From positions 1 to 64,000 of the IMG/VR virus record IMGVR_UViG_3300043436_004480: a stretch of 64,000 nt of DNA; one strand, written 5' to 3'. A model generated the notes under the pieces. That model was not told the origin of the DNA. It ran no database searches and worked only from the letters and a program-made list of their open reading frames with translations. This stretch comes from a virus. Both the position numbers and the translations under genes were made by a program. The number at the start of each line of letters is the position of its first letter. Position 1 is the first letter of the stretch. This document shows, in pieces, positions 2,510 through 40,720 of this stretch.

Positions 2510-3207
2510 TACCAGATTATTTCCGTTTGGTTTGTTAGTTTGAGAGCAACATTTATTTGCTGGAAGATTTGCTCATTCTCCCATTTTCTTTCTTCTCTTG
2601 CTGCAAATGCAGGATGTTCAGTTTCTTTTACCATATGTACAGAAGACACATATCTGCTGAAAGTTTTTGCTTTGGAACCAATAAAACAGAATAGTAATTT
2701 TCTATCTGTTGTACGAGCGCAAAGTTCTTTTATTACGTTACGAGTAAAATATTCCCAACCTTTTTCATAATGCGAACTAGATTCTTTTTCTCTTACTGTA
2801 AGTACAGAATTTAACAAGAATACTCCTTGATCTACCCAAGACTGCAAAGTTAAGTCTTTTGAAGCAGTTTTACTAGCATTCATTAAAATTTTTAATGTTA
2901 CAGGAGGTCTATGTTTGCTAAGTTGTGAAGCAAATGCCCTTCCCATTGCGTGTTCATTTGGATATGGATCTTGCCCCACTAAGATAACTTTTACTTTTTC
3001 TGGGGGTAAATCTCTGAACATTTTAAATGTATCAGAACTTTTCGGGTAAATATTAAATTTAGATCTTTCTTCTGCTAAAAAAGTTTTTAAAGCTTTCATA
3101 TCTCTAGATTCTAAATATTTACCAATAAGATTAGCCCATTCGTTTCCTAAAAAACGAATGGTGCTATCTTGAGGTTTATATGCAAACAGTTCTAGCTGGC
3201 TGGACAT
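2509..3207 (-). CDS. ung: Uracil-DNA glycosylase (family 1)
   Basis: VKVILVGQDPY, QGVFLLNSVLTV and HPA motifs. Confidence 0.95.
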   Translation of the reverse strand: MSSQLELFAYKPQDSTIRFLGNEWANLIGKYLESRDMKALKTFLAEERSKFNIYPKSSDTFKMFRDLPPEKVKVILVGQDPYPNEHAMGRAFASQLSKHRPPVTLKILMNASKTASKDLTLQSWVDQGVFLLNSVLTVREKESSSHYEKGWEYFTRNVIKELCARTTDRKLLFCFIGSKAKTFSRYVSSVHMVKETEHPAFAAREERKWENEQIFQQINVALKLTNQTEIIW

Positions 3208-7333: not shown

Positions 7334-10300
7334 TTACAAAGTAGGGATTAAATTTGAACGGTGAAGATTTTTGAATACTCCTGTTGTATTATGAGCATTC
7401 TGCGAAAAGGCAGTTTTTCTTCTTTGAAATATGCTTGAATCTAAATTCGACAGATTATAAAAGAAATCATCTCTTTTTACAACTCTGTTTGCATACTTAT
7501 TAAAGTCTCCTTCTTTTAGTGATTTTAAATATTTTTGCTTTGCTTCAAGTCCTTTGAAATATACAACCTTTATCAAAGAACCATCTGTATAATTTCTCTT
7601 AATCATTTTATCTGTAAATTCATAATCGTTTGTTAATGAACAATTATAAATATCAGAATTAGAAAAACCTACTGATTTGGTTTCAATCAAAGGAAACAGT
7701 AGTTTTTTATTAAGATCAATATACGCATTTTTTAAGTTAAAAGTGCATTCTACACTTAGATTTTTTAAGAATTCTTCAACTTTTGCTTCATAGCTTGATG
7801 CGTTTCCTAATGTTTTGTAAACAGAAGCACCATACATTGATCTTTTCTTTGCATTAAGAGATATGTTTTCACAATAGAATTCAAAAACATGAATCTTTTC
7901 TGCACCTTCTGTTTGTGGAAACAAAGGATTATCTTTGTGATTTATTTTTATTATTGATTTTTGACTGTTGTAATCAATAAGTTTTGAATATTCAGGAAGA
8001 AAATTAGAAACATGTCTTTCAGAAAGAACAAATTTCTGTTTTCTGTGAATATATCTTTCGTTAGTAAGTGCTTTTGTAAATTCTTTTTCTTGTATACTAC
8101 CGTCCATCATAATAAAAGATGACAGAGTAGATAAATCACTATTTATATGCTTGTAAGTTTTGTCTATCATCTTGCATAATTTATGCAGATAGAGATATGC
8201 ATCATAGTGAATTTCTGTAACAGACAAAGCATATTTTAATTCAGTGAGAGAATTTTCAAATTCTTCTTCTGTCAGACAAATTCCTCCTAATGCTGTATAT
8301 ACATTATAAGCATTTGCAATTTCTAAGAAAAACAACTTCATTTTTCCTGAAAGTTCTGCTAAATCATTTACATTGTCGTTTATTGCAGGTCGATATGAAT
8401 ATCTAGAATGTCCATTTTTTGATATTCTATTCATATCTAAATACAAGTCACCAAGTTCTTTTGTGATTATCGCATCCGGATAAATCAGTTCTTCATTTAT
8501 GAAATCTAAGTTAGGACAGAAACTTGTTCTGACTTTACTATGATAGCCTCCATAATAATCAGATTTTGCAGGATCTTTAAAATACATATAGTCTATATGT
8601 AAATTAAAACTAGAAACTAACTTCTTCAAATTAGTTACATTTCCATATAACCAATTAGATGAAAATCTATCTGGAGTATAAGGATCATAAATAAGAACAT
8701 GCAGAGTTTCTAATAGTTTTTTATTATACTGATGTTTTTCAACTACGTTATGATAAGGCTGAGTAAACAGGACTTCATTTTTGAAATTGCTGTGATTCAT
8801 TCCGTTATTCAGATATATTTTCGAATCTGAATATTTTTCATTAGGAACAGCACCAATTATTTTCTGATCTCTTACCGGATATACAAAATCATTATGATAC
8901 TGCAATCTAGGAACTGTTTTTCTTAACTTCTCAAAAGGTCTTGCTATAAACTTTGAGAAATTAGAATAATCTCTAATCAATTCATCATGTTTAAGAAAAG
9001 TATACAACTGCATCGTAAAGAACGGATGCACAGTAAATATAAATTTATCAAAATGAAAAAGATTTTTTGCAAATTCTGCTTCTTCTGTTTCAAGATAATA
9101 AATCTGTTCTTCGTTTAACACAAATATTGAATTAAAGAAATCTTTATAGTAAGAAGAACTATCTTTGTAACCACCACTAAGTGATATAGATTCTTTATAA
9201 TGAACGAATTGATAACTTGTATATACAAACTGAAATGTATTTACTAAGTCTTTAACTCGTTCAACTTCTTCTGGTAAACAGTAAAGAAAGTAGTTAGGTT
9301 CTTTTTCTGCTAGAAAAGCTTTTTTAGTAAAATCTTTATCATCTACTTTTTTTATAAAGGTTTCAAGAGTTTCTACAAAGGAAGAGTTTTTTTTGAGTGC
9401 AATCGAACTCTGAGTAGGAGTATCTAAGTAAAGACATTTTACATTAGTTTTCTCTACCGGAATGATTTCTTTTGCTTCTCTTTTCTTTCTTTCTTTGATA
9501 AACTCTAGTCTTGCTGCTTCTAAAGAAGATTTTTCTAATCTTTGTTTTTCTGCTTCTATTTCTAGAGCTTCTTTTACTTTTAACTTGAGTTGAGAGAAAG
9601 CTGTCTCCAGATTATTCTTTTCTTCTTCTGGGGTGTTTACTATTCCATAAGTATTACAGATTTTATCTATATACTTTTTAGAATAGAATCTATTTTGAGT
9701 ATTTACAAGAAGTGCAAAAGCACTCATGTAATTTTTAAGTGCATACTTATTTACATAAAATTTTCTTTTTAGCCTTAACAAATCAGAATTTGTTACTGCT
9801 CTGTCTCTAAGTATGTTTGCTAAATCTTTTCTAGCTTCTGATGGATCAGAAGAAATAGTAGGATATTGACTTATTTGTTGATTAAACGAACCTATTAAAT
9901 CTTGTTCAATTGATTCGTAAAAATCAGATCTGTTTACAGTAGAAAACGAAAAATTTTGAGTTTCTATATAACTTAAAGAGAGAACGTCACTCAACAAATA
10001 CGGAGTTCTGAATAATATTTCAGGAAGAAGATTTAAATAACAAACAAATAAGTCTGCAAGCTTTGAGTCTTTTAAGATTTCATATGTGTCTAACTTTTTA
10101 TTAAAAAGTTCTACAAAAGACTTTTTGCTGTTAAAAGCATAATTCCTTTCTAGAAATCCTTTTCTGAAAACTCCTGCTTGAACAGTTTGCAAATTGTTTC
10201 TTGAAAAACAAGAATGTATTGCACTTCTGAGATATTCAAATTGCTGTTTCCAACTTCCGATGAAAGATAATTCTTTATCATCAATTATTGAAATTCCAGA

Positions 10301-12082
10301 CGGAAAACTTGGTATAAATGATGAAATATCTCTTGAATTTCCGATTACTTCTACAACTTCGTTCTCAAGATTTAAGTTTTTTAGTACTGCACCTACTGGA
10401 TTTCTATTAAAAAGAACTTGAAAATACGAATTTCCAAGATAACCTTTGTTATAACAAGCAGAAATTGCGGTTTTCAAAAGTCCATTTATATCACTTCTTA
10501 GGAACAAGGGTGTGTTTCTAAACCTGTTCCAGTTTTCTACTACACTTATTTGTCTAAATTCTTTTTTGTTTTCAGGAAGATAAAATTCTTCCCAGTTATC
10601 TTTCAGTTTTGAATTTATTTCATATATCTTTGGAAACTCTGAAAAGTTACTTGACGGAAAAGAACTCATTACAAAACCAGTAAATACCATATACAGATAA
10701 TACCGATAATTCAGAGAACTTTGTAACTGTTCATTACTAAGATTTTCCAGATCAAACGCTATAAATTCATTATGCAAGAAGTTTTCTTTTGATGAATTCT
10801 TTAATAAATGTCTTACTAAAGTTATACATTTTCTTGTTTCTTCATCTCCGGATTCAAAAATCTCTTTTATTAAAGCTGATGGACAAAAAGAAGTTGCATC
10901 TGACAAGTGATATGAAAAGAGTGAACTTATTACAGAATAAGGAATATAAAAGTCTTGATTATCTACTTTTAATGATAGACTTTTTGACTTGTGATAAATT
11001 CCATTTAGAAACTCCAATTCTTCTACTGTCGAAAAACCAATTATTTTTGGCAAATCTACATGAAATGTATAAAGTCTGATTTTAGAATGCTTTAGCTTAT
11101 CCAGAATAAAAAACGAGTATTCTAACAATACAGATTTTATTTTGTTTGCTATTACTTCTACACTTTCTTCTGTAAGCTTTATACTTTCTCTGCTTGGGTT
11201 TGGTAATAATTCACCAATTCCAAATCTGAGGAACATATATGGAATTGAAGCAAAAGATTTAAGCAAGTCTGAATAATAACCTTTTTGTTTTGAAACGTCT
11301 ATCTGGTACAATACATCGCCTAATAAGATATTAAGTCTGTGTGTATAAGAAAAAGAAGATTCGTGTTGTATTCCTTCTAAACAACGATGAAATACCGGAA
11401 AAAACAAGTATTCCTTGGTATTTATAAAATCTACTGCCTGATTAAAAGGACTTTCAAATATATTTGAAGTTATGTTAGGAAAGCCAAACAAAGTTCTGAA
11501 TGCGACTTCAGAAAACTTCTTTGCATCATCTCTATCTGTTAAAGGAATTCTAATTGTAGTTCCTTCTTCTTCAAATGGTGCTTCTTCTGTTTCTTGTAAA
11601 ACTAAAGAGGGAATATTCTTTTCATTTTTGTAGAAAAGATAAATTCTTTTTTTGTCTTCTCCTAAACATTTTGTTTCAATGTAGAAAGAATCTGTATAAG
11701 CAAAAGGAGATTTTGAACCAATTCCAAAACCTCCTATCATTTCATTTGAATTTCTTTTTGTGCTATCAAAATATTGAAGATAATTATCCCACATAAAAGA
11801 TTCCGACATACCTTTGCCATAATCTTTTACAGTTAAAAAATAATCATCTTCTGCCGAAGTAACCATTACTTCAACATTTTTTGTTGCATTGTTATCTTTA
11901 TTTGCATCTACTGCATTAGATGTTATTTCTCTAAGAATTGCAGATATTGGATCTTGATAGAGTCTTTCAGAAAGAGTTGATAATGCGCTTGCTAGATCTT
12001 TTGATGATATTCCAGCTTCTTTTGCATTTACATCTATTAGTCCTTCTTGTTCAGAATGGGAGGTTTGAATATCCGTTTTCAT
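7334..12082 (-). CDS. rIIA: rIIA-like protein with N-terminal GHKL ATPase (1582 aa)
   Basis: LYQDPISAILREITSNAVDA, VKDYGKGMS, STKR..IGGFGIGSKSPFAY, PSRESI. Confidence 0.85.
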   Translation of the reverse strand: MKTDIQTSHSEQEGLIDVNAKEAGISSKDLASALSTLSERLYQDPISAILREITSNAVDANKDNNATKNVEVMVTSAEDDYFLTVKDYGKGMSESFMWDNYLQYFDSTKRNSNEMIGGFGIGSKSPFAYTDSFYIETKCLGEDKKRIYLFYKNEKNIPSLVLQETEEAPFEEEGTTIRIPLTDRDDAKKFSEVAFRTLFGFPNITSNIFESPFNQAVDFINTKEYLFFPVFHRCLEGIQHESSFSYTHRLNILLGDVLYQIDVSKQKGYYSDLLKSFASIPYMFLRFGIGELLPNPSRESIKLTEESVEVIANKIKSVLLEYSFFILDKLKHSKIRLYTFHVDLPKIIGFSTVEELEFLNGIYHKSKSLSLKVDNQDFYIPYSVISSLFSYHLSDATSFCPSALIKEIFESGDEETRKCITLVRHLLKNSSKENFLHNEFIAFDLENLSNEQLQSSLNYRYYLYMVFTGFVMSSFPSSNFSEFPKIYEINSKLKDNWEEFYLPENKKEFRQISVVENWNRFRNTPLFLRSDINGLLKTAISACYNKGYLGNSYFQVLFNRNPVGAVLKNLNLENEVVEVIGNSRDISSFIPSFPSGISIIDDKELSFIGSWKQQFEYLRSAIHSCFSRNNLQTVQAGVFRKGFLERNYAFNSKKSFVELFNKKLDTYEILKDSKLADLFVCYLNLLPEILFRTPYLLSDVLSLSYIETQNFSFSTVNRSDFYESIEQDLIGSFNQQISQYPTISSDPSEARKDLANILRDRAVTNSDLLRLKRKFYVNKYALKNYMSAFALLVNTQNRFYSKKYIDKICNTYGIVNTPEEEKNNLETAFSQLKLKVKEALEIEAEKQRLEKSSLEAARLEFIKERKKREAKEIIPVEKTNVKCLYLDTPTQSSIALKKNSSFVETLETFIKKVDDKDFTKKAFLAEKEPNYFLYCLPEEVERVKDLVNTFQFVYTSYQFVHYKESISLSGGYKDSSSYYKDFFNSIFVLNEEQIYYLETEEAEFAKNLFHFDKFIFTVHPFFTMQLYTFLKHDELIRDYSNFSKFIARPFEKLRKTVPRLQYHNDFVYPVRDQKIIGAVPNEKYSDSKIYLNNGMNHSNFKNEVLFTQPYHNVVEKHQYNKKLLETLHVLIYDPYTPDRFSSNWLYGNVTNLKKLVSSFNLHIDYMYFKDPAKSDYYGGYHSKVRTSFCPNLDFINEELIYPDAIITKELGDLYLDMNRISKNGHSRYSYRPAINDNVNDLAELSGKMKLFFLEIANAYNVYTALGGICLTEEEFENSLTELKYALSVTEIHYDAYLYLHKLCKMIDKTYKHINSDLSTLSSFIMMDGSIQEKEFTKALTNERYIHRKQKFVLSERHVSNFLPEYSKLIDYNSQKSIIKINHKDNPLFPQTEGAEKIHVFEFYCENISLNAKKRSMYGASVYKTLGNASSYEAKVEEFLKNLSVECTFNLKNAYIDLNKKLLFPLIETKSVGFSNSDIYNCSLTNDYEFTDKMIKRNYTDGSLIKVVYFKGLEAKQKYLKSLKEGDFNKYANRVVKRDDFFYNLSNLDSSIFQRRKTAFSQNAHNTTGVFKNLHRSNLIPTL

Positions 12083-35478: not shown

Positions 35479-35746
35479 AAGGAAGGATGTGTTTCTGCAC
35501 AATACACATCAAATTGTTGTGAAATAAGAACTTTTTAAAATACTTAAAGTCTCTCCGCAATTTTCTATTAATAAGGACTTCTGCAACGACTTCGCAGCAT
35601 TTGGAATCTTATGAAAATAGAAATAATTAACTAAGGAAGTTAATACATGATTTTTACTTCTGCACGATACCTCTTACGTTATGAACTAGTCATCGACTTG
35701 AGTTACGCCCCACATGTTTGTCATTTCTGAAGAATTTCTGTAAAAT

Positions 35747-35775
35747 AAAAAACTCTCTGATTTCTCAGAGAGTTT
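35747..35775 (-). terminator. Terminator of the tmRNA coding piece
   Basis: AAACTCTCTGA-GAAA-TCAGAGAGTTTTTT. Confidence 0.8.
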
Positions 35776-36050
35776 ATTCACCGTTTTAGTAGGTTTCACT
35801 CGTTTAGCTTATGCTGCAACTGCAACACGAGAAAACATAGGTACTGATTTGCCGTTTATGGCTTTGCTTTCCTTTCTCAGCGATTTTTCATACTGTCAAA
35901 ACCGGTCTTCCCCAATTTGCAGAAATGCATCTGCACAGTACTAAAGCGACTGGTTAGCTACAACAAAAGTTGAGTGGAGAAGTAGGGATTCGAACCCTAG
36001 TCCAACATGAATTCTACTTCGATACAAGCGGAACGCATCGTAAAAGTATG
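35750..36050 (-). ncRNA. ssrA: Circularly permuted (two-piece) tmRNA
   Basis: Acceptor piece ...GAC TAGGG TTCGAAT CCCTA CTTCTCC A ends at 35975 and lies upstream of the coding piece, which starts GGGGAAG ACCGGTTTTGAC at 35913. G3-U70 pair present. Tag frame 35853-35809 reads GKSVPMFSRVAVAA*. The 5' end of the acceptor piece is approximate. Confidence 0.9.
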
Positions 36051-36947: not shown

Positions 36948-37032
36948 GCTGCGTACACAGGATTCGAACCTGCTTTGTTCAGACAACACGAGTTTCACGT
37001 GCGCAAACAAAATCACCATTAGAAATACGCAG
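36948..37032 (-). ncRNA. tRNA-like RNA without a canonical anticodon arm
   Basis: 8-bp acceptor CTGCGTAT/GTACGCAG, D-like loop TAATGGT, long central hairpin, T-arm GCAGG-TTCGAAT-CCTGT. Confidence 0.7.
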
Positions 37033-39330: not shown

Positions 39331-39440
39331 GTCACAATGAGAAGATTCGAACTTCTAAAGTTTTTCGGATTAGAATCTTGTCTAATCTTACTAAGGAATC
39401 TACCGATTTCCTCAACTATTCCACCGACTGGACATTGCGA
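39331..39440 (-). ncRNA. tRNA-like RNA with a branched domain in place of the anticodon arm
   Basis: Acceptor TCGCAATG/CATTGTGA, D-arm TCC-AGTCGGT-GGA, T-arm AGAAG-TTCGAAT-CTTCT. Confidence 0.75.
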
Positions 39441-39590: not shown

Positions 39591-39647
39591 AACAGTTTAA
39601 CAACTTGTTGAGGTTCTGAAAAAGCAGTTTTAAAACTTGCTTAGGTT
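39591..39647 (-). repeat. Type II motif, two tandem copies
   Basis: AACCTAAGCAAGTTTTAAAACTGCTT and AACCTCAACAAGTTGTTAAACTGTT. Confidence 0.65.
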
Positions 39648-40240: not shown

Positions 40241-40316
40241 AACTCTGAATGCAGCTTCTCATCTGAGAATTTCGACTCCTTTAAGTCTTATTATACTGCT
40301 ACTTTTTACTTTTAGA

Positions 40317-40362
40317 TATTATTGAAAGATTCGAACTTTCTGATCCACCGACTGGAATAATA
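40317..40362 (-). ncRNA. Minimal 46-nt tRNA-like element (acceptor, D and T arms only)
   Basis: TATTATT-CC AGTCGGT GG-ATCA-GAAAG TTCGAAT CTTTC-AATAATA. Confidence 0.7.
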
Positions 40363-40364
40363 AG

Positions 40365-40390
40365 GAACAGTTTTTAAACTTGTTCAGGTT
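40365..40390 (-). repeat. Type II motif, third copy
   Basis: AACCTGAACAAGTTTAAAAACTGTTC immediately after a stop codon. Confidence 0.65.
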
Positions 40391-40720
40391 TTAATCTGCT
40401 AACCAGTCGTATTCAGATTTATCGAAATAGTCTGGATCACTAATATCTTTGTTATCGAATGCTTCTAGTTCTTCTATGCTTTTTCTTAACGAAGGATGCA
40501 CTCCAGTATTTTCTTGCCACTCGACTATCTGCTCATCAGTAAGTTCAACTTCATTTCTAAGTTGTGCAAGAAATTTATTTCTATCGTCGTCTGTAAGGAT
40601 TTCTCCATACATATTCTCAAAAATTTCGACGTTGTCTTCATGATAAAGACGTTCTGCTTCTCTGAAAGGAATTTTTAACTCTAAAGAAGCGTATGCGATT
40701 AATTCGTTTTGAAGGTTCAT
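40391..40720 (-). CDS. Acidic early protein
   Basis: About 29 D/E versus 10 K/R in 109 aa. Confidence 0.7.
   Translation of the reverse strand: MNLQNELIAYASLELKIPFREAERLYHEDNVEIFENMYGEILTDDDRNKFLAQLRNEVELTDEQIVEWQENTGVHPSLRKSIEELEAFDNKDISDPDYFDKSEYDWLAD

Follow-up and report, generated by a model that had tools for sequence, protein, structure and literature searches.

What is a 46-nt sequence that resembles the top half of a tRNA, lacks the anticodon arm completely and lies between two genes of an uncultured phage? The sequence was noticed in a stretch of 64,000 nt (positions 1 to 64,000 of the IMG/VR record IMGVR_UViG_3300043436_004480; hereafter the window), and an earlier note, prepared from the letters alone, described it without naming the strand; the letters quoted there are those of the minus strand. 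When read on this strand from 40362 to 40317, the element consists of UAUUAUU, CC-AGUCGGU-GG, AUCA, GAAAG-UUCGAAU-CUUUC and AAUAAUA (Table 1). We could find on this strand every part that had been described: a 7-bp acceptor stem (seven of seven pairs), a perfect T-arm (five of five stem pairs together with the T-loop), a D-loop AGTCGGT closed by CC/GG, and a 4-nt ATCA linker in the place of the anticodon and variable arms. The D-arm mimic and the linker form a 15-nt D-like segment, CC-AGUCGGU-GG-AUCA, that replaces the D, anticodon and variable arms, and the loop of the mimic contains a GG that would contact the T-loop. The T-stem has 5 bp with the G53-C61 closure of the loop UUCGAAU and with A-U at position 52; the 3' strand of the acceptor abuts its CUUUC with zero intervening bases and is followed by U-C-U-A (discriminator and trailer), and CCA is not encoded. 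The view that the element is a mimic of the tRNA top half, without an anticodon arm, is supported.

Table 1. Coordinates of the 46-nt element, its parts, neighbouring features and family members in other phages. Positions without an accession number are those of the window.
Feature	Position	Strand	Remarks
Whole 46-nt anticodon-less mini-tRNA-like element	40317..40362	-	From sequence; top match of model R2 in the window, with identical ends
Acceptor stem, 5' strand (UAUUAUU)	40356..40362	-	7/7 pairs with 40317-40323
D-arm mimic (CC-AGUCGGU-GG), 2-bp stem	40345..40355	-	Exact 11-mer shared only with 39421-39431
Linker (AUCA), 4 nt, replacing anticodon and variable arms	40341..40344	-	From sequence
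T-arm (GAAAG-UUCGAAU-CUUUC)	40324..40340	-	Seen in the MFE fold
Acceptor stem, 3' strand (AAUAAUA)	40317..40323	-	From sequence
28-nt spacer with bulged hairpin	40363..40390	-	Fold of 40300-40400; between upstream stop codon and element
Upstream ORF, 109 aa	40391..40720	-	Stop codon 40391-40393; no Pfam match
Downstream ORF, 187 aa	39677..40240	-	Orphan; start 76 nt past the 46-nt element
Paralogous 107-nt tRNA-like element	39333..39439	-	Same D-arm, other acceptor stem; fold z = -2.43
82-nt tRNA-like element	36950-37031	-	7-bp acceptor, D-arm UC-UAAUGGU-GA, T-arm
Permuted two-piece tmRNA and Hatchet ribozyme region	35645-36021	-	Rfam tmRNA_permuted, 59.1 bits
P738 member	MK911750.1 27000-27041		Streptococcus phage; verified by eye and model
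phiCD27 member	NC_011398.1 50011-50051		Clostridioides phage; verified by eye and model
P12002S member, 47 nt	NC_028763.1 49413-49459	-	Polaribacter phage; verified by eye and model
cr53_1 member	NC_055889.1 75416-75456	-	crAss-like phage; BLAST match alone

The window is part of a 93.7-kb record of an uncultured virus that encodes terminase large subunit (TerL), portal, major head protein and DNA polymerase. Among cultured phages, the window TerL is nearest to those of Cellulophaga phage phi14:2 (29.5%) and gut crAss-like phages, and because of this we regard the phage as crAss-like; its host is presumably an aquatic member of Bacteroidota. The nearest TerL homolog (P0003, 77% identity) is located on a 90-kb NCBI MAG contig (locus tag EBU90_01535), while no relative of the window TerL was found in JGI metagenomes, no match to the major capsid protein in IMG/VR, and no blastn match to 35.5-41.5 kb in cultured phages. 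The genes to the left of ~42.7 kb are on the minus strand, and the 46-nt element is intergenic on this strand of its flanking genes, 28 nt after the 109-aa ORF and 76 nt before the 187-aa ORF, for which no relatives were found in IMG/VR and only the protein itself was matched in a set of 5.8 billion proteins. Terminator-like sites of the minus strand were found at 41412-41379 and 36886-36866 with none convincing in between, and on this basis the element and its two larger cousins described below are probably carried within one transcript; a scan for sigma-70-type promoters gave fewer sites than in shuffled sequence. Searches of the phage record (completeness 57% according to CheckV) gave neither a CCA-adding enzyme (PF01743) nor SmpB (PF01668). 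Short hairpins of the type xxCAG-UUUWAAAA-CUUGxx recur 3' of stop codons of the operon (39591-39647 and 40365-40390, minus strand), and the latter immediately precedes the 46-nt element; both sites had been called pseudoknots in the earlier note and appear as bulged hairpins in MFE folds, a method blind to pseudoknots. Elsewhere in the window, a 1582-aa protein (7334-12082, minus strand) matches RIIA lysis-inhibitor families over its first ~330 residues (phrog_612, E 3e-61) and is unassigned over the remainder.

The 93.7-kb genome contains only two copies of the D-arm 11-mer CCAGTCGGTGG, both on the minus strand (40345-40355 and 39421-39431), and a flanking T and A bring the identity to 13 nt. 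The second copy belongs to a 107-nt tRNA-like element in which two hairpins, one with a GGUA tetraloop closure, replace the anticodon arm. The D-arm identity that had been reported for an element at 39331-39440 is exact, and the accompanying remark that the acceptor and T stems of the two copies differ and still pair also holds: the acceptor stems CGCAATG/CATTGTG (107 nt) and TATTATT/AATAATA (46 nt) are different at every position and both pair perfectly, and two T-stem pairs are changed on both sides. In total, the genome has four UUCGAAU T-arms, all on the minus strand within 35.9-40.4 kb and belonging to a permuted tmRNA and the 82-nt, 107-nt and 46-nt elements. The 82-nt element has a long central helix with a 7-nt loop UGAAACU (no U33, C37), gives only a weak match to tRNA-Sec (21.8 bits, E ~1), and is followed downstream by the aforementioned terminator-like hairpin at 36886-36866. 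The tag of the phage tmRNA assigned by ARAGORN is GKSVPMFSRVAVAA; a Hatchet ribozyme (35645-35734, minus strand, 61.4 bits) lies 3' of this tmRNA with a terminator-like hairpin (35775-35750) between them, and such a self-cleaving ribozyme directly after the tmRNA may define an RNA end. With default settings ARAGORN called only the tmRNA in the window and left the 46-nt element uncalled (its relaxed output of 179 calls was rejected as meaningless), and Rfam assigned the tmRNA and the Hatchet ribozyme. No family of Rfam 15 overlaps 40317-40362 even at E<=10, and no match to the tRNA clan was obtained there.

When the same architecture is found repeatedly in other phages, its maintenance can be judged by comparison. 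We examined 80 IMG/VR loci having TerL with 33-38% identity to the window TerL, by scanning for a T-arm and then for pairing of the 7-nt strand with a 5' partner. Nine elements of 41-50 nt were found (L007, two in L053, two in L055, L063, L075, L082 and L084), with perfect 7-bp acceptor stems whose sequences are unrelated to one another, a G-closed T-arm with the loop UUCGAWU (UUCGAGU in L063), and a short linker with (A)UGGU. These TerL relatives carry 1-3 copies on the strand opposite to that of TerL, at a distance of 3.8-6.9 kb upstream of the gene, which is also the placement in the window, and a search of five full records of relatives with the covariance model R2 explained below gave full-length matches nowhere outside that pre-TerL region. 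Strict T-arms in the loci of the relatives and the window genome number 26 on the strand opposite TerL versus 4 on the TerL strand. The elements of L075 (CC-GUGGU-GG) and L063 (4-bp D-stem) are intermediate between the stem-less 41-nt form and the 46-nt form of the window.

Several other tRNA genes and tRNA-like elements were noticed. In L082, and identically in L084, the segment 4304-4659 of the minus strand packs three tRNA-like elements into 350 nt, all of them with ACCA or ACTA behind them. The shortest is a mini-element of 50 nt in which AUGGU precedes a 6-bp palindromic hairpin; the other two (~73-85 nt) contain large inserts and have a mismatch at the 7:66 pair. Further non-canonical tRNA-like genes upstream of TerL were found on the minus strand of L022 (2485-2558 and 1586-1682), L057 (2795-2901), L056 (1553-1622) and L030 (983-1057 and near 3061), and among them are a tRNA to which ARAGORN assigns an anticodon of four bases (tcca), a type-II-like tRNA of 97 nt missed by ARAGORN, a tRNA of 107 nt whose anticodon arm carries an insertion, a tRNA of 70 nt that lacks U33, and a ~67-nt form in which a tetraloop hairpin replaces the anticodon arm. 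A 130-kb viral contig (L130) carries eight tandem tRNA-Leu genes (six UAA and two CAA) at 1448-2408 on the plus strand with a period of 125 nt.

A search of IMG/VR was conducted with the pattern ATGGT, 3-20 nt, GGTTCGAWTCC, in which the acceptor stem is left unspecified. Among the pattern matches listed, 52 were inside tRNAs called by ARAGORN and 67 were outside; 32 of these 67 have at least six of the seven acceptor pairs at the expected place and 12 of the 32 have all seven, for which the chance estimates are ~4 and ~0.4, respectively. The same architecture was found in at least dozens of unrelated viral contigs: a 6-7-bp acceptor stacked on a 5-bp T-arm with the GUUCGAWUC loop, no anticodon arm, and an 8-23-nt D-loop-like segment with GGU as the sole joint between acceptor and T-arm, the whole ranging from 39 to 55 nt. 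A 41-nt member matched the crAss-like phage cr53_1, Streptococcus phage P738 with related phages, Clostridioides phages (phiCD27 among others), and Polaribacter phages P12002L and P12002S, with no annotated feature underneath the matches in these cultured or reference phages; in P738, phiCD27 and P12002S alike, a small hypothetical CDS begins 12-45 nt after the member. A stem-less (A)AUGGU is present in most members, and the subtype with a 2-bp D-stem is present also in L075; the subtype of the window (CC-AGUCGGU-GG, short linker and T-arm) is found also in the metagenome contigs L288, L254 and L267. Two sets of candidates were rejected in this process: exact-D-arm patterns in IMG/VR (L001, L004 and L005) were chance matches in ordinary tRNAs or coding DNA, and the candidate of Listeria phage LP-125 (L197) has just five of seven acceptor pairs.

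The 44 elements listed are mostly intergenic, and ~24 of them have a same-strand ORF start less than 100 nt downstream, often at 14-40 nt. The leader is U-rich, with A or U at position -1 in 39 of 43 members, and 38 of the 43 have A or C as discriminator; trailers are often ACYA, and an encoded CCA is rare. In Rfam searches the 47-nt Polaribacter copy was a sub-threshold tRNA (28.3 versus 29 bits), and four other members gave nothing at E<=1. A full-text literature search gave no description of anticodon-less tRNA mimics in phages. The family is absent from Rfam; processing signals that resemble tRNAs are known in general, namely from t-elements, mitochondrial punctuation and mascRNA. We are highly confident that the 46-nt element belongs to a widespread phage family that is real and under selection.

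Covariation was examined in an alignment of 26 members to the structure (A6), from which the window element was excluded. Standard pairs occupy 95.4% of the stem cells versus 56.3% after shuffling and 42-52% with the partners slid, changes on both sides are present in 11 of 12 pairs, and the covariation score is 0.996 versus 0.09-0.19 with the partners slid. Fitting an alignment to a structure is a bias in favour of such values; the acceptor complementarity was already visible in pattern matches chosen without the acceptor. The pair 7:66 is unformed in 8 of the 21 cells with letters, and its frequent absence fits the alternative fold of the window element with a 6-bp acceptor. The family strand is taken to be the gene strand because the G-U pairs of several members fall there only. 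The covariance model R1, built from four sequences, was too sequence-specific to score the window element and was replaced by R2, built from the 26 members without the window element. With the filters off, the best of the 26 matches of R2 in the window was 40317-40362 of the minus strand, with exact ends (18.1 bits; E 0.014, a rough value from a short calibration), and with default filters the element was missed. The second-best match in the window was the T-arm region of the phage's own tmRNA (18.0 bits), and R2 also recovered L055b, L075 and the 50-nt element of L082, which were not used for training. The selection on shape proposed in the earlier note is now backed by covariation across phages, by the match of a model made from other phages, and by the conserved position in distant relatives.

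Folding energy was less informative. The MFE structure of the 46-nt element (-6.9 kcal/mol, z = -0.99) has two separate hairpins, in which the T-arm and a small D hairpin are kept and the all-A/U acceptor stem is open. The full tRNA-like fold has -3.3 kcal/mol, and a variant with the 6-bp acceptor and a 4-bp D hairpin has -5.7 kcal/mol at 37 C and equals the MFE in energy at 15 C; the tRNA-like folds are thus 1.2-3.6 kcal/mol above the MFE at 37 C. For other members, MFE folding gives the acceptor/T-arm shape in 10 of the 11 tested (the exception is L055 3098-3139), which is not the case for the window element. Thermodynamics by itself does not set the 46-nt element apart from chance, and the comparative evidence is decisive. 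The low z-score would suit the view that A/T-rich inverted repeats have arisen by chance around a TTCGAA palindrome, or that the site acts at the DNA level, e.g., as a protein-binding palindrome; likewise, the element contains no G-U pair by which the strand could be fixed, and a loose architecture (a TTCRANN loop on any stem of 5 bp, with a 7/7 acceptor at a distance of 4-30 nt) is expected 0.4 times per simulated genome of the same composition and was present in 59 of 200 simulations, i.e., in ~30% of them. When the family features (G53-C61, TTCGA loop and GGT in the linker) are added, however, this strict architecture was obtained in 0 of 1000 simulations versus one observed, and the R2 E-value covers both strands of the window. 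Because, in addition, the T-loop register and the GG are compatible with the gene strand only and the four TTCGAAT T-arms of the genome are all on the minus strand within 4.4 kb, we regard this explanation as highly improbable.

Several known RNAs are instructive for interpreting the element. In plant mitochondria, t-elements fold like tRNAs and have a conserved T-arm; their ends coincide with those mapped for mRNAs, and they bear C/CCA that is not encoded (Forner et al., 2007; PMC1920247). Like the phage elements, they are non-decoding folds inside mRNA precursors; t-elements are cut by RNase P and RNase Z, whereas cleavage of the phage elements is a proposal. The t-elements are organellar, ~74 nt long and imperfect cloverleaves, being degenerate tRNA relics of one genome, whereas the phage elements are 39-55 nt, lack the anticodon arm wholly, and form a covarying family across many phage lineages. 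To the t-element motif GGTTCRANYCC, the window sequence AGTTCGAATCT matches at 9 of 11 positions, and most other family members match in full. From the 3' end of MALAT1, RNase P and RNase Z excise another small tRNA-like RNA, the mascRNA (Rfam mascRNA-menRNA), and its excision leaves an upstream RNA with a structured, protected 3' end; the phage element has a hairpin just upstream. The mascRNA is, however, a nuclear RNA of eukaryotes, ~61 nt long, in which an anticodon stem is retained in reduced form, and we do not imply common descent. In the tRNA-like module of YrlA, a bacterial Y RNA, the acceptor end is closed and the 5' and 3' ends form a Ro-binding helix; the phage element has the opposite topology, with its acceptor as an open end and no further helix. 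The two have in common that YrlA is non-coding, is also found in phages, and has a module that mimics the D/T elbow of tRNA (Chen et al., 2014; PMC4201824). The comparison with YrlA and mascRNA models that had been recommended in the earlier note, made with Rfam, gave no match at 40317-40362 at E<=10. Mycobacteriophage DS6A encodes a tmRNA consisting of the tRNA-like domain (TLD) only, a kind reported to inhibit tmRNA, perhaps via SmpB titration (Hudson et al., 2014; PMC4131195). The TLD of tmRNA and the TLD-only RNA of DS6A share with our element the acceptor, the T-arm, a stem-poor D-loop, the lack of an anticodon arm and phage encoding; different from these, the element has neither G3:U70 nor a match to the tmRNA family of Rfam, is located between ORFs, not as a stand-alone gene, and occurs in several sequence-diverse copies per phage lineage. 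Canonical tRNAs share with the element the acceptor stem, T-arm, T-loop consensus and D-loop GG. Armless mitochondrial tRNAs have lost D- or T-arms and keep the anticodon arm; the phage element is the reverse and cannot decode.

RNase P, RNase Z and the CCA-adding enzyme recognize the acceptor/T-arm half and the elbow of tRNAs, not the anticodon arm. The features conserved in the family, i.e., the 12-bp acceptor/T helix, the T-loop and the GG for the elbow, are those read by these enzymes, and because of this we favour, at about even confidence, the interpretation that the 46-nt element is a cis processing signal for host RNase P and RNase Z in the leftward operon, comparable to the t-elements of plant mitochondria. 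According to this proposal, the element would be transcribed within a polycistronic message, in which the RNA would form the acceptor/T-arm helix and the D-loop/T-loop elbow and would be recognized by the tRNA-maturation enzymes of the host. RNase P would cut on the 5' side, between 40363 and 40362, and RNase Z or 3' exonucleases would act past the discriminator (40316). The message would be split in this way, the upstream mRNA ending in the protective hairpin of the 28-nt spacer and the downstream gene acquiring a new 5' end, and an RNA of ~46 nt, perhaps CCA-tailed, would be released. Since the phage has no detectable CCA-adding enzyme, any CCA tailing would rely on the host. The pre-tRNA-like flanks seen across the family (position -1, discriminator and trailer) count for processing. 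Counting against it are the weak all-A/U acceptor stem of the window element, its modest R2 score of 18.1 bits, a D-region longer than the family norm, A instead of G at position 52, a discriminator U that is rare in the family (4 of 43), and a distance of 76 nt to the next start codon in place of the usual 14-40 nt.

The main alternative is that the same conserved surface is read by a host factor in trans. A small tRNA-shaped RNA, accumulating by processing or from its own promoter, might titrate a factor that reads the acceptor, T-arm or elbow, for which SmpB with trans-translation, a defence nuclease or toxin directed at tRNAs, and tRNA-modifying or CCA-adding enzymes come into question. 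The shape is near to that of the tRNA-like domain of tmRNA, as is reflected in the second-best R2 match mentioned above, and the 1-3 copies per genome in the clade are below one per gene boundary, which would suit such a decoy. The 3:70 pair is, however, U-A, so that the alanine identity pair G3:U70 is absent; the phage has its own tmRNA, which is at odds with the blocking of trans-translation; and the elements are located between ORFs of the same orientation and often precede a start codon by 14-40 nt, which fits a cis role. We consider a decoy function of the element unlikely, and note that it is compatible with release by RNase P/Z and itself requires such release. For the family in general, the view that mini-tRNAs are stable CCA-tailed RNAs of ~40-50 nt acting in trans on a host protein that reads the tRNA top half, whether SmpB, an end-processing enzyme, or a defence nuclease or toxin directed at tRNAs, appears to us quite doubtful.

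It is also conceivable that the element acts in the mRNA without being cleaved, as a block to exonucleases or an organizer of downstream translation, in a host phylum that mostly lacks Shine-Dalgarno pairing. The intergenic location on the gene strand and the closeness of many members to the downstream start codon are in favour of this explanation. A plain hairpin would be enough for protection, and yet the family keeps tertiary features specific to tRNA (G53-C61 with the T-loop UUCGAWU, and the GGU of the D-like segment) together with the pre-tRNA-like flanks; a purely structural role is therefore judged distinctly unlikely. A different possibility is that the element does nothing, being an undecayed remnant of a recent internal deletion in a copy of the 107-nt tRNA-like gene or in a tRNA. 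The 13-nt identity of the D-arms at a distance of 0.9 kb suggests a recent duplication or gene conversion, and the orphan ORFs nearby indicate that the region turns over fast. Against this, the acceptor is wholly unlike that of the paralog and yet pairs at 7 of 7 positions, two T-stem pairs are double-changed, unrelated contigs contain the same shape without an anticodon arm and also its CC-AGUCGGU-GG subtype, and the same genomic position is used in distant relatives. The decaying stems by which, according to the earlier note, a deletion remnant would be recognized were not seen, all 12 stem pairs being intact and the shape recurring in unrelated phages, and a non-functional remnant is very improbable in our judgement.

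If the favoured interpretation of cleavage by RNase P and RNase Z is correct, many phages, from crAss-like phages of Bacteroidota to those of Streptococcus and Clostridioides, use the "tRNA punctuation" known from mitochondria. A stripped-down signal of 40-50 nt would then set the ends and stabilities of mRNAs gene by gene without a phage-encoded nuclease, would account for many "empty" intergenic spacers, and would be a compact natural RNA-processing tag. If the elements act in trans, they would represent a new type of tRNA-shaped decoy and a widespread class of phage RNAs for counter-defence or host takeover. Annotation of phage genomes could be improved, because present tRNA finders and Rfam miss mini-tRNAs, and under either interpretation the family is directly testable in the cultured phages that carry it.
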